The translations under genes were made by a program, and so were the position numbers. This document shows, in pieces, positions 9,111-35,554 of a stretch of 64,000 nt of DNA. The notes under the pieces were generated by a model. That model had not been told where the DNA came from, made no database searches, and worked only from the letters and a program-made list of their open reading frames with translations. The stretch lies in the NCBI RefSeq assembly GCF_003018235.1, contig NZ_CP027437.1, one strand, 5' to 3'. Each line of letters starts with the position of its first letter. Position 1 is the stretch's first letter. This DNA comes from Escherichia coli (GTDB taxonomy: Bacteria; Pseudomonadota; Gammaproteobacteria; Enterobacterales; Enterobacteriaceae).

Positions 9111-9138
9111 AAAAAGCAATGCCGCCATCGGCGGCATT
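9111..9138. terminator. Terminator hairpin between convergent ydfI and ydfZ
   Basis: AATGCCGCC / GGCGGCATT stem, preceded on the plus strand by AAAAA (a U-tract for the minus-strand ydfZ transcript). Confidence 0.6.
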
Positions 9139-23985: not shown

Positions 23986-24012
23986 GACTTCAGGAAGATA
24001 TTACGGAGATAT

Positions 24013-24036
24013 CAGGCTCTGTGATCAGAGCCTGAC
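24013..24036. terminator. Hairpin between the convergent glucosidase gene and marB
   Basis: TCAGGCTCTG / CAGAGCCTGA stem with a 4-nt loop. Confidence 0.55.
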
Positions 24037-26007: not shown

Positions 26008-26029
26008 AAAAGGCCCGAATGGGCCTTTC
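26006..26029. terminator. Bidirectional terminator between marC and sotB
   Basis: AAAAA-AGGCCC-gaat-GGGCCT-TT hairpin. Confidence 0.65.
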
Positions 26030-28570: not shown

Positions 28571-29446
28571 CTAACTCTGTTTTGCCGAGTCAGACACATC
28601 CAGTAGTTGAATAAATGCCTCAAGCGGACGCGTTTTCGCACCGCGACGCCAGACCAGCCAGGTTGTTAACCAACGCCATTGCTCAGCTAACGGCCACGCT
28701 TCAACCTGGTGATGCCCCGGCATACTTTCCAGCATAGAGCGTGGAATAAGCGCAATGCCTGCTCCTGCGACCACACAGGCCAACATCCCGTGATACGACT
28801 CCATCTCGTGAATAGTTCCCGGAGCGGCACCGTCAGCATGAAACCAGCTCTCGAAGTGGCGACGATACGAACAATTGGCGCGGAAGGCATAAATGTTACT
28901 GCCATTAACCTGACTGGCACGGGTTACTGGCGCATGTCCTTGTGGCGTGACAATCATCAGCTCCTCGCGGTACACCGGTATCCCGTCAATGGCAGTATGG
29001 TTAATGGGCCCATCAATAAACGCCGCATTCAGTTTTCCCTCCAGCACCCCTTCCAGCATAGTGCCGGAAGGGCCGGTGGAAAGTGAAAACTGAATTTTGG
29101 GATAACGACGGTTAAATTCCGCCAGCGTGGCCGGAATGCGCACTGCTGCGGTGCTTTCCAGCGAACCAAGAGAAAATAAACCTTGCGGCTCATCGCCAGC
29201 GACAATGCTCCGCGCTTCATCCACTAATGCGAGAATTTGTTGGCTATAGCGTAAAAAGTTATGCCCGGCAGGCGAGAGACGTAAACGCTGATTCTCGCGA
29301 ATAAACAGATCAACCCCCAGTTCTGTTTCCAGCTGGCGTAGACGGGTAGTGAGATTCGACGGCACGCGATGCACTTTTGCTGCAGCCTGGGTTATGCTGC
29401 CAGCTTCGGCAACCGCGTTGAACATCTCCAGTTGGGTCAGATCCAT
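28571..29446 (-). CDS. yneJ: LysR-family transcriptional regulator YneJ
   Basis: N-terminal HTH ([40 protein letters not shown]) and LysR substrate-binding domain. Confidence 0.9.
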
Positions 29447-29546
29447 AATATTCTCGATTCGTGAATAAGTGGCTTAATATTATTCATTTTAAAGCAAGAG
29501 TAAATCTGCGTATCTTCATACAATGACTCATAAAGGAGATACCCCG

Positions 29547-30935
29547 ATGACCATTACTCCGGAAACTCATGCAATTTCGATAAATCCTGCCACCGGTGAA
29601 CAACTTTCTGTGCTGCCGTGGGCTGGCGCTGACGATATCGAAAACGCACTACAGCTGGCGGCAGCTGGCTTTCGCGACTGGCGCGAGACAAATATAGATT
29701 ATCGTGCTGAAAAACTGCGTGATATCGGTAAGGCTCTGCGTGTCCGTAGCGAAGAAATGGCGCAAATGATCACCCGTGAAATGGGCAAACCAATCAACCA
29801 GGCGCGCGCTGAAGTGGCGAAATCGGCGAATTTGTGTGACTGGTATGCAGAACATGGTCCGGCAATGCTGAAGGCGGAACCTACGCTGGTGGAAAATCAG
29901 CAGGCAGTTATTGAGTATCGACCGTTGGGGACAATTCTGGCGATTATGCCGTGGAATTTTCCGTTATGGCAGGTGATGCGTGGCGCGGTTCCCATCATTC
30001 TTGCAGGTAACGGCTACTTACTTAAACATGCGCCGAATGTGATGGGCTGTGCACAGCTCATTGCCCAGGTGTTTAAAGATGCGGGTATCCCACAAGGCGT
30101 ATATGGCTGGCTGAATGCCGACAACGACGGCGTCAGTCAGATGATTAAAGACTCGCGCATTGCTGCTGTCACGGTGACCGGAAGTGTTCGTGCGGGAGCG
30201 GCTATTGGCGCACAGGCTGGAGCGGCACTGAAAAAATGCGTACTGGAACTGGGCGGTTCGGATCCATTTATTGTGCTTAACGATGCCGATCTGGAACTGG
30301 CGGTTAAAGCGGCGGTAGCCGGACGTTATCAGAATACCGGACAGGTTTGTGCAGCGGCAAAACGCTTTATCATCGAAGAGGGAATTGCTTCGGCATTTAC
30401 CGAACGTTTTGTGGCAGCTGCGGCAGCCTTGAAAATGGGCGATCCCCGTGACGAAGAGAACACTCTCGGACCAATGGCTCGTTTTGATTTACGTGATGAG
30501 CTGCATCATCAGGTGGAGAAAACCCTGGCGCAGGGTGCACGTTTGTTACTGGGCGGGGAAAAGATGGCTGGGGCAGGTAACTACTATCCGCCAACGGTTC
30601 TGGCGAATGTTACCCCAGAAATGACCGCGTTTCGGGAAGAAATGTTTGGCCCCGTTGCGGCAATCACGATTGCGAAAGATGCAGAACATGCACTGGAACT
30701 GGCTAATGATAGCGAGTTCGGCCTTTCAGCGACCATTTTTACCACTGACGAAACACAGGCCGGACAGATGGCGGCACGTCTGGAATGCGGTGGGGTGTTT
30801 ATCAATGGTTATTGTGCCAGCGACGCGCGAGTGGCCTTTGGTGGCGTGAAAAAGAGTGGCTTTGGTCGTGAGCTTTCCCATTTCGGCTTACACGAATTCT
30901 GTAATATCCAGACGGTGTGGAAAGACCGGATCTGA
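29547..30935 (+). CDS. sad: NAD(P)-dependent succinate-semialdehyde dehydrogenase Sad (YneI)
   Basis: 462 aa from [19 protein letters not shown]...; aldehyde dehydrogenase catalytic motifs (ELGGSDP; catalytic Cys in GQVCAAAKR); AAAGGAG RBS. Confidence 0.9.
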
Positions 30936-30998
30936 CGCTACATATTCAGCTCTGATATACTCGCAGGTCTTTTCAGACCTGCGGTCCAGGAGTAGAAA

Positions 30999-31925
30999 GT
31001 GGCAGTCGCCATGGATAATGCAATTTTAGAAAACATCTTGCGGCAAGTGCGGCCGCTCATTGGTCAGGGTAAAGTCGCGGATTATATTCCGGCGCTGGCT
31101 ACGGTAGACGGTTCCCGATTGGGCATTGCTATCTGTACCGTTGACGGACAGCTTTTTCAGGCCGGAGACGCGCAAGAACGTTTTTCCATTCAGTCTATTT
31201 CCAAAGTGCTGAGTCTCGTTGTCGCCATGCGTCATTACTCCGAAGAGGAAATCTGGCAACGCGTCGGCAAAGATCCGTCTGGATCACCGTTCAATTCTTT
31301 AGTGCAACTGGAAATGGAGCAGGGTATTCCGCGTAATCCGTTTATTAATGCCGGTGCGCTGGTGGTCTGCGATATGTTGCAAGGGCGATTAAGCGCTCCT
31401 CGGCAACGTATGCTGGAAGTCGTGCGCGGCTTAAGCGGTGTGTCTGATATTTCCTACGATACGGTGGTAGCGCGTTCCGAATTTGAACACTCCGCGCGAA
31501 ATGCGGCTATCGCCTGGCTGATGAAGTCGTTTGGCAATTTCCATCATGACGTGACAACCGTTCTGCAAAACTACTTTCATTACTGCGCTCTGAAAATGAG
31601 CTGTGTAGAGCTGGCCCGGACGTTTGTCTTTCTGGCTAATCAGGGGAAAGCTATTCATATTGATGAACCTGTGGTGACGCCAATGCAGGCGCGGCAAATT
31701 AACGCACTGATGGCGACCAGTGGTATGTACCAGAACGCGGGGGAGTTTGCCTGGCGGGTGGGACTACCGGCGAAATCTGGCGTTGGTGGCGGTATTGTGG
31801 CGATTGTTCCGCATGAAATGGCCATCGCAGTCTGGAGCCCGGAACTGGATGATGCCGGTAACTCGCTTGCGGGCATTGCTGTCCTTGAACAATTGACGAA
31901 ACAACTAGGGCGTTCGGTTTATTAA
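30999..31925 (+). CDS. glsB: Glutaminase 2 GlsB (YneH)
   Basis: 308 aa, serine-dependent glutaminase family; GTG start with an AGGAG RBS. Confidence 0.9.
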
Positions 31926-32284
31926 TGCAGTCTCTCGATCCACTCTTCGCGCGTTTATCCCGTTCAAAATTTCGCTCTCGGTTTCGTTTGGGCATGAAAG
32001 AGCGTCAGTATTGTCTGGAGAAAGGCGCGCCAGTCATCGAACAACATGCGGCGGATTTTGTCGCTAAACGTCTTGCTCCGGCATTACCGACTAATGACGG
32101 TAAGCAAACCCCCATGCGCGGGCATCCGGTGTTTATCGCTCAGCACGCCACTGCAACCTGTTGTCGCGGTTGTCTGGCTAAGTGGCATAACATTCCGCAG
32201 GGTGTTTCGTTAAGCGAGGAACAACAACGTTATATCGTGGCGGTAATCTATCACTGGTTGGTTATACAGATGAATCAGCCATGA
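31925..32284 (+). CDS. yneG: Uncharacterised protein YneG (DUF4186-like)
   Basis: 119 aa; start overlaps the glsB stop (TAATG). Confidence 0.8.
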   Translation: MQSLDPLFARLSRSKFRSRFRLGMKERQYCLEKGAPVIEQHAADFVAKRLAPALPTNDGKQTPMRGHPVFIAQHATATCCRGCLAKWHNIPQGVSLSEEQQRYIVAVIYHWLVIQMNQP

Positions 32285-32422
32285 TAATTGCGGAAAACGA
32301 TAAAATAGCATTCCCAGGATATCTTTATTTGCCGCCGCTGTCAGCGAACATGCTATCCTTTATAAGAATTTACTTATTACGTTGAGATAATTGCCACCCG
32401 CAATTGTATGGACAGATAATTA

Positions 32423-33841
32423 ATGCATGTACAGCCCATTTCAACTTTCCGTTTGTTCCAGGAAGGTCATCTGCTACGTAATAGCATCGCTATTTTTGCG
32501 CTAACCACGCTGTTCTATTTTATTGGTGCAGAGTTACGGCTGGTTCACGAACTTTCTCTTTTCTGGCCGCTGAATGGCGTAATGGCGGGGGTGTTTGCCC
32601 GCTATGTCTGGCTTAATCGACTGCATTACTATGCGATCAGTTATGTGGCAATGCTGGTTTATGATGCCATAACCACCGAATGGGGGCTGGTTTCACTGGC
32701 TATCAATTTCTCCAATATGATGTTTATTGTTACCGTCGCCTTACTGGTCGCGCGGGATAAGCGTCTGGGGAAAAATAAGTACGAGCCAGTAAGTGCCTTA
32801 CGGCTATTTAATTACTGTCTGATTGCCGCATTATTATGCGCTATTGTCGGGGCGATTGGTTCGGTCAGTATTGATAGTCTGGATTTCTGGCCTTTGCTTG
32901 CCGACTGGTTCAGTGAGCAATTCTCAACGGGCGTGTTGATAGTGCCTTGTATGCTGACGTTGGCAATTCCTGGAGTGCTGCCGCGCTTTAAAGCAGAACA
33001 GATGATGCCCGCTATCGCGCTTATTGTGTCGGTTATTGCCTCGGTAGTCATTGGCGGAGCGGGGAGTCTGGCGTTCCCGCTGCCTGCATTAATCTGGTGT
33101 GCAGTGCGCTATACGCCGCAGGTAACATGTCTGTTGACCTTTGTCACCGGTGCGGTGGAAATCGTACTGGTGGCAAATTCGGTGATTGATATCTCGGTCG
33201 GTTCGCCATTCTCCATTCCAGAAATGTTCTCCGCACGTCTCGGTATTGCCACGATGGCGATATGCCCAATTATGGTTTCTTTTAGCGTGGCAGCGATCAA
33301 TTCGCTAATGAAGCAAGTTGCGCTGCGAGCCGACTTTGATTTTCTGACTCAGGTTTACTCACGGTCCGGTCTTTATGAGGCGCTGAAAAGTCCATCGCTG
33401 AAACAGACACAACATCTGACTGTCATGCTGCTTGATATCGACTATTTCAAAAGTATTAACGATAACTATGGACATGAATGTGGCGATAAAGTGTTAAGCG
33501 TGTTTGCAAGGCATATTCAGAAGATTGTCGGTGATAAGGGGCTGGTGGCACGAATGGGCGGCGAAGAATTTGCTGTTGCAGTGCCATCGGTGAATCCTGT
33601 CGATGGTCTGCTAATGGCGGAAAAAATCCGTAAAGGCGTTGAACTGCAACCGTTCACCTGGCAACAAAAAACGCTTTATCTCACGGTAAGTATTGGCGTC
33701 GGTAGTGGTCGCGCATCGTACCGAACGCTGACCGATGACTTTAATAAATTGATGGTCGAAGCCGATACGTGTCTGTATCGCTCGAAGAAAGATGGGCGCA
33801 ACCGTACCAGCACTATGTGTTACGGTGAGGAAGTTGTCTGA
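32423..33841 (+). CDS. dgcF: Membrane-anchored diguanylate cyclase DgcF (YneF): N-terminal multi-TM sensor domain plus GGDEF
   Basis: 472 aa; hydrophobic N-terminal half; GGEEF motif. Confidence 0.85.
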   Translation: MHVQPISTFRLFQEGHLLRNSIAIFALTTLFYFIGAELRLVHELSLFWPLNGVMAGVFARYVWLNRLHYYAISYVAMLVYDAITTEWGLVSLAINFSNMMFIVTVALLVARDKRLGKNKYEPVSALRLFNYCLIAALLCAIVGAIGSVSIDSLDFWPLLADWFSEQFSTGVLIVPCMLTLAIPGVLPRFKAEQMMPAIALIVSVIASVVIGGAGSLAFPLPALIWCAVRYTPQVTCLLTFVTGAVEIVLVANSVIDISVGSPFSIPEMFSARLGIATMAICPIMVSFSVAAINSLMKQVALRADFDFLTQVYSRSGLYEALKSPSLKQTQHLTVMLLDIDYFKSINDNYGHECGDKVLSVFARHIQKIVGDKGLVARMGGEEFAVAVPSVNPVDGLLMAEKIRKGVELQPFTWQQKTLYLTVSIGVGSGRASYRTLTDDFNKLMVEADTCLYRSKKDGRNRTSTMCYGEEVV

Positions 33842-35526: not shown

Positions 35527-35554
35527 AACCCGGTTTCGACCGGGTTTCTTATTT
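35527..35554 (+). terminator. Intrinsic terminator after uxaB
   Basis: AACCCGG / CCGGGTT stem followed by TCTTATTT. Confidence 0.7.

Follow-up and report, generated by a model that had tools for sequence, protein, structure and literature searches.

The 63-nt spacer that separates sad from glsB in Escherichia coli contains a sigma-70-type extended -10 promoter (CTGACG-18 nt-TGaTATACT), and as an RNA structure the stem-loop encoded in this spacer is confined to the read-through isoform. The palindrome forms part of the internal promoter and leader of glsB. In the long mRNA it would be a structural element that does not terminate transcription, most likely a barrier to decay or an insulator; this is the role we prefer, tentatively and at somewhat less than an even chance.

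The window, that is, the whole 64,000-nt stretch of E. coli DNA that was analysed, has the local gene order sad, glsB, yneG, dgcF. DNA of strain MCJCHV-1 is 100% identical to it over 181 nt round the hairpin, and a window position p converts to position 1644250 - p, minus strand, of K-12 MG1655. The features on which the analysis is based are given below, with their sources in brackets.

29523..30935, + strand: sad (yneI), succinate-semialdehyde dehydrogenase (ORF list; RefSeq annotation of identical DNA)
30932..30937, + strand: -35-like hexamer CTGACG, overlapping the sad stop codon (promoter scan: CTGACG-18-TATACT with TG)
30933-30935, + strand: sad stop codon TGA (ORF list)
30953..30961, + strand: extended -10 TGaTATACT (TG 30953-30954, hexamer 30956-30961), abutting the stem (promoter scan; alignment)
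30962..30970, + strand: hairpin 5' arm CGCAGGTCT, also the discriminator/start-site region of the glsB promoter (sequence, fold, start-site mapping)
30969..30970, + strand: glsB-yneG transcription start (Yan et al. 2018, PMC6131387; coordinate conversion)
30971..30974, + strand: loop TTTC (sequence, fold)
30975..30983, + strand: hairpin 3' arm AGACCTGCG, nt 6-14 of the promoter-derived glsB 5' UTR (sequence, fold)
30988..30992, + strand: glsB Shine-Dalgarno sequence AGGAG (sequence; alignment)
30999..31925, + strand: glsB (yneH), glutaminase 2, GTG start at 30999, 308 aa (ORF list; RefSeq annotation)
31925..32284, + strand: yneG (DUF4186), co-transcribed with glsB (ORF list; annotation; published transcripts)

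The first-pass annotation had placed a hairpin, GCAGGTCT-tttc-AGACCTGC, at 30963-30982, and it was found exactly there. The perfect stem is one pair longer than had been noted, comprising 9 bp (CGCAGGTCT/AGACCTGCG, 30962-30983) closed by a 4-nt loop; six of the nine pairs are G-C, and folding adds a wobble pair, U30961.G30984. In agreement with the same annotation, the stem begins 28 nt past the sad stop codon (which ends at 30935), it ends 5 nt upstream of the AGGAG of the glsB ribosome binding site (RBS; 30988-30992), and the bases that follow it, GGTCCAGGAG, do not form a U-tract. The folding energy, which had been proposed as a check, also bears the hairpin out: the 20-mer folds at -12.1 kcal/mol (z = -4.7; 0/200 shuffles as good), and the 28-nt segment that includes the extra pair and the wobble folds at -16.3 kcal/mol. 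Perfect hairpins with a stem of at least 8 bp number 25 in the window (nested ones counted) versus 7.0 +/- 3.0 in dinucleotide shuffles, and because they are thus about 3.5 times commoner in the window than in shuffles, a single hairpin of this kind is not remarkable in itself; in one given 63-nt spacer it is expected about 0.007 times. Other perfect hairpins are present in the window at 226-247, 9118-9138, 24012-24035, 26009-26028, 35527-35546 and elsewhere, several of which, being G+C-rich, look like terminators or other elements. Neither an annotation nor a description of the sad-glsB stem-loop was found, and no feature is annotated at this place under the matching E. coli records. The stem-loop itself belongs to an ordinary class of element; both the promoter and the start site had been published before and are listed in RegulonDB.

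The spacer had been treated as purely intercistronic. The hairpin does lie between the two cistrons, but the spacer also holds the conserved extended -10 promoter. By itself the promoter scan says little (8 sites versus 7.3 expected). Among 80 Enterobacteriaceae loci gathered by homology to GlsB, 80/80 have TATA[CA]T at a distance of 33-39 nt from the glsB start, 76/80 have TG at -15/-14, and 52/80 have CTGACG at 17-18 nt from the -10. The alignment named A2, made up of 58 distinct sequences, has invariant columns at four of the six positions of the -10 hexamer (T, A, T, A) and at the final T. The glsB Shine-Dalgarno sequence is, in the aligned loci of other genera, part of a conserved GCAAGGAG.

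Published mapping places the start of transcription where this promoter predicts it. SMRT-Cappable-seq captures 5'-triphosphate ends, and with this method the start of the glsB-yneG (b1524|b1523) operon was mapped at 1613280 on the reverse strand, flagged as the same as the RegulonDB operon (PMC6131387). This K-12 position is the last base of the 5' arm, at the junction of arm and loop, 8-9 nt after the -10. The reads in that study were aligned to NC_000913.3 after trimming of 5' poly-C, and starts at most 5 bp apart were clustered (Yan et al. 2018, PMC6131387); because of the trimming the start is window position 30970 or possibly C30969. Genomic SELEX with sigma-70 holoenzyme has also revealed a 'constitutive promoter' in the sad/yneH spacer, which was assigned to yneHG (PMC3946193). 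The hexamers given there, TTTTCA-17-TAGAAA, coincide with the loop of the hairpin and with the last 6 nt ahead of the GTG (window 30970-30998). As the yneHG promoter, this pair was rejected, for it predicts a start inside the ORF, which is incompatible with the mapped start at 30970.

Together, the TG and the near-TATAAT hexamer present in the window, and the start site and holoenzyme binding known from the literature, place this promoter among the internal sigma-70 extended -10 promoters that give nested transcripts. Like them it has the TGnTATACT motif, a weak -35 and a primary 5' end that has been mapped; holoenzyme binds it in vitro, and read-through arrives from an upstream promoter. Here the RegulonDB operon glsB-yneG is nested inside sad-glsB-yneG. 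Unlike the usual members of this class, it has a 9-11 bp palindrome that straddles the glsB start, and the resulting mRNA isoforms differ in an RBS-adjacent stem-loop.

The position of the start has a direct consequence for the hairpin. With the mapped start at 30969/30970 the 5' arm is discriminator DNA and is absent from the primary glsB mRNA, and since this mRNA starts inside the stem, the RNA hairpin can form only in read-through mRNA. The primary transcript has a 29-nt leader that is predicted to be unstructured, and the fold of the short isoform is no more stable than those of its shuffled versions (z about 0). The long isoform gives fold z values of -3.2 to -3.9 with the hairpin at the core. 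Long transcripts do exist. Read-through analysis had been put forward as another check on the hairpin, and full-length sad-glsB-yneG transcripts have been sequenced in published SMRT-Cappable-seq work (PMC6131387). A 'novel' read-through transcript sad-glsB-yneG (b1525|b1524|b1523) listed there starts at 1614727, and a sad-only transcript starts at 1614845 (PMC6131387). Other papers regard sad-glsB-yneG as a single operon regulated by PtrR/YneJ, a view that fits the read-through class of transcripts.

Over the 35-nt segment that comprises the -10 and the hairpin, identity is at least 99% in 5415/5419 of the E. coli records that match it, and the median copy number is one per genome. The flanking 181 nt are polymorphic (1637 E. 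coli records have less than 99% identity), and the differences between E. coli alleles all lie upstream of the hairpin, between the -35 and the -10. Beyond the species the hairpin is recognisable in most Enterobacteriaceae; a protein search for more distant glsB loci returned close relatives only. Pairing was analysed on the 58 distinct sequences of alignment A2 with an 11-pair structure. In-register pairing is present in 81.4% of cells, versus 27-42% when the register is slid by 1-3 columns. Shuffled partners still pair in 77.3 +/- 0.7% of cells, and 0/500 shuffles reach 81.4%; as the sequences are related, this shuffle control is not to be read as a probability. Cells in which both partners have changed number 26 versus 11.5 +/- 2.7 in shuffles (0/500), whereas the pairs with any double change are only 5 versus 4.7 in shuffles, and RNAalifold gave no consensus structure for the 58 sequences.

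Several lineages have an altered stem sequence in which pairing is kept, for example Escherichia (GGTCT/AGACC), Kosakonia and Enterobacter (GGCCG/TGGCC), Phytobacter (CAGCC/GGCTG) and Silvania confinis (CTGGCC/GGCCAG); in S. hatchlandensis, sister to S. confinis, the corresponding pair is an A.G mismatch. For 40/58 distinct sequences the predicted hairpin reaches -8 kcal/mol or better. The stem has decayed in the other 18/58, which include the whole Klebsiella oxytoca group, and there the -10 and the RBS are intact. Among the inner nine pairs, G.U and A.C mismatches are about equally frequent (48 versus 38), and therefore neither strand is marked as the selected RNA. Conservation of the arms is also not specific to pairing, because the discriminator and the 5' UTR may each constrain their own arm. 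Altogether these comparisons provide moderate evidence that pairing is maintained, and weak support from covariation.

The hairpin belongs with glsB rather than with the end of sad. About half of the loci (L009-L081), from many Citrobacter, Enterobacter, Kosakonia, Lelliottia and relatives, have a gene of about 1.7 kb between sad and glsB. For Citrobacter youngae the intervening gene (L009:1307-2938) is a 543-aa chemoreceptor-like ORF that ends in RFRLPA*, with its stop in the same CCTGACG that contains the stop of sad in E. coli. Where such a chemoreceptor gene is present, promoter, hairpin and RBS remain with glsB. Some Citrobacter loci, with spacers of 110-176 nt, retain only a 3' remnant (…TTCCGGCCTGACG) of the chemoreceptor-like gene. 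By comparison of these loci, the E. coli sad-glsB arrangement looks like the result of a deletion.

These data have to be weighed against other explanations of the palindrome. The strongest of them, if still an unlikely one, is that the stem has no separate function: inherited complementarity would persist, with the 5' arm constrained by its role as discriminator and start region and the 3' arm by its place at the beginning of the 5' UTR. Both arms are mostly highly conserved, so that shuffled pairings still leave 77% of cells paired, and the decayed stems beside an intact promoter and RBS and the lack of an RNAalifold consensus are equally in line with it. It is less easily reconciled with lineages, such as L032, L039/L050, L030 and Escherichia, in which both arms have been altered and the stem is still perfect over 9-11 bp, with the excess of in-register pairing and of double-change cells over all 500 shuffles, or with a segment that is invariant in about 5,400 E. 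coli genomes while neighbouring spacer positions vary. The nearly equal numbers of G.U and A.C mismatches would be expected for duplex DNA, and one might accordingly see in the dyad CGCAGG-N10-CCTGCG (about -8 to +14 of the glsB promoter) the site of a dimeric regulator, in the simplest case a repressor obstructing RNA polymerase. The symmetry (30962-30983) does overlap the core promoter, its centre is about 3 bp downstream of the start, a typical repressor position, the outer half-sites keep an almost constant spacing of 9-10 bp from genus to genus, and a sub-threshold YneJ/PtrR ChIP-seq signal has been reported 'upstream of glsB'. We nevertheless judge an operator improbable. The arms are continuous over 9-11 bp and their inner part changes yet stays complementary, a pattern more in keeping with a hairpin than with base-specific contacts by a protein; with 16 bp between their centres, the half-sites would face opposite sides of the helix; neither the rest of the 64-kb window nor the remainder of E. 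coli genomes contains a second copy; and a known cognate factor is lacking, the PtrR (YneJ) motif TTCACnAATnGAGAA being a mismatch on which the identification as a PtrR operator was rejected.

Other explanations concern the expression of glsB from the long message. The read-through hairpin could clamp a longer structure that masks the RBS, in which case glsB would be poorly translated, or translated only when coupled to sad, while the promoter-derived mRNA would be open. For E. coli the predictions are in favour of this: the minimum-energy fold of 30900-31040 (z = -3.9) pairs GCUCU (30949-30953) with GGAGU (30989-30993) and the sad stop region (30933-30941) with the glsB GUG region (30999-31008), and opening the RBS costs 4.8 kcal/mol in the long isoform versus 0.6 in the short one. 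Across genera the picture is different. The native upstream sequence exceeds shuffled-upstream controls in only 34/76 distinct sequences, a count on which we rejected masking as a conserved function; about ten species with strong hairpins mask the RBS less than 93-97% of controls do; no covariation was seen by eye in the helices beyond the hairpin; and the K-12 allele (T30939G) breaks one pair of the outer helix. Masking is therefore quite improbable as a general explanation, and by the folding model it may apply in Escherichia and Kluyvera. Position 30939 is T in the window and G in K-12 (GACGCTACAT versus GACGCGACAT), the pair lost in K-12 being a wobble pair of the helix between the sad stop and the glsB start. 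A broader proposal, to which we attach little probability, is that the palindrome acts as an isoform selector placed on the start site, giving the mRNA from the constitutive internal promoter an open leader and the sad-promoter mRNA (or, in other genera, the chemoreceptor-gene mRNA) a stem-loop that alters the stability or translation of the glutaminase B message. If this were true, glutaminase B output per transcript would depend on which promoter had fired. Finally, the stem might be a weak terminator or attenuator that ends sad transcripts before glsB, as the sad-only transcript class reported alongside the read-through class (PMC6131387) and the stable, G+C-rich stem could suggest. This we consider very improbable, in view of the missing U-tract, Rfam family, alternative pairing and terminator-scan call, of the existence of read-through transcripts, and of the absence of a mapped end at 1613xxx in SMRT-Cappable-seq and at 16132xx in the part of the Term-seq tables that was consulted.

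The first-pass annotation had already argued against a terminator, and its argument is strengthened here: besides lacking a U-tract, the hairpin is not called by the terminator scan, and transcripts that pass through it have been sequenced. It shares with Rho-independent terminators the G+C-rich stem, the short loop and the place downstream of a stop codon, and differs from them by having no U-tract right after the stem and no 3' end in the tables consulted, with documented read-through. The accompanying suggestion of attenuation was not supported, as neither an alternative structure nor a leader peptide nor an Rfam match was detected; a search of Rfam with window positions 29000-33000 at E <= 10 gave no match, and there is a single dominant fold, without a terminator. 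No termination site is present at 1613xxx in the SMRT-Cappable-seq table (PMC6131387), the Cappable-seq 2016 supplements contain no RNA end at the stem, and the portion of the Adams 2021 Term-seq tables that was consulted has no 3' end at 16132xx, expression being low in standard media. More generally, no RNA 5' or 3' end was found at the stem in those parts of the published end maps that were examined. The consulted part of the Adams et al. 2021 supplement does contain an antisense site inside yneH/glsB, at K-12 position 1612827 (+), which is about window position 31423 on the minus strand.

Several other classes of element were considered and rejected. An attenuator or riboswitch does not agree with the lack of an Rfam family and of mutually exclusive pairings, and a REP/BIME or other dispersed repeat does not agree with the single copy (one match in the window at <=3 mismatches and a median of one place per E. 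coli genome). As an RNase III site the hairpin is too short, with only 9-11 bp versus about 20 bp or more, and the longer irregular helix of E. coli is not conserved. A 5'-terminal stem-loop of the ompA type on the primary transcript is excluded by the start site, which is the last base of the 5' arm, so that the stem cannot form. By eye, the sequence fits neither sigma-54 spacing (GG-N10-GC) nor a LexA box (CTG-N10-CAG; the spacing here is N9), nor the NemR, MetJ and CsrA motifs.

We therefore return to the structural element in the read-through mRNA as our preferred explanation. Transcripts from the PtrR-controlled sad promoter read through the spacer, and both arms are present only in these long RNAs. 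There, a stem-loop of -12 to -16 kcal/mol is predicted to fold 5 nt upstream of the RBS, pairing the G+C-rich promoter sequence with itself. Such a stem-loop could block 3'-to-5' exonucleases heading back to the upstream cistron and, after a cleavage in the A/U-rich spacer, could also protect the glsB-yneG segment as a 5'-proximal stem. Separate lifetimes would then be possible for the two parts of the long message; transcription is not stopped by the stem-loop. A processing or stability element is a reasonable candidate role.

Elements of this general kind are known. REP sequences in malE-malF were reportedly described by Newbury and colleagues in 1987 as intercistronic stabilising stem-loops. 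The sad-glsB hairpin has in common with them a stable, G+C-rich hairpin between cistrons that lacks a U-tract and does not terminate; it differs from them in being single-copy and in travelling with the downstream gene, and a processed RNA end is not among the mapped ends. The ompA leader is a 5'-terminal stabilising stem-loop. The feature shared with it is a stable stem-loop close upstream of the RBS, whereas the glsB primary transcript starts inside the stem and the hairpin would be 5'-terminal only if the long mRNA were processed.

The results correct the local annotation, in that glsB-yneG is served by a conserved promoter of its own, with a start site that the hairpin straddles. Should the stem-loop affect the read-through mRNA, this would provide a small and clear-cut case of a DNA segment that works as promoter discriminator for one transcript and as structured RNA within another, and it would be relevant to attempts to engineer the expression of glutaminase B or Sad. 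The sad-glsB hairpin bears on no long-standing question.

The sad-glsB DNA or GlsB is present in records labelled Caldithrix sp. MAG, Bacillota MAG, Chryseobacterium sp. and Bacillus amyloliquefaciens (L002, L005, L034 and P0118). Their sequences are typical of E. coli or Enterobacteriaceae, L002 and L005 being up to 99-100% identical, and these records probably reflect contamination or mislabelling of public assemblies. E. coli OkiPb01707 (NZ_AP042644.1; L085:1590-1700) is without glsB and yneG: the match of this strain to the window breaks off within the hairpin 3' arm, after AGAC, and the next annotated gene is a diguanylate cyclase gene. The ORF at the dgcF (yneF) position of the window (32423-33841) encodes 472 aa, and dgcF is annotated with 1419 nt in OkiPb01707 versus only 948 nt (315 aa) in K-12 MG1655.
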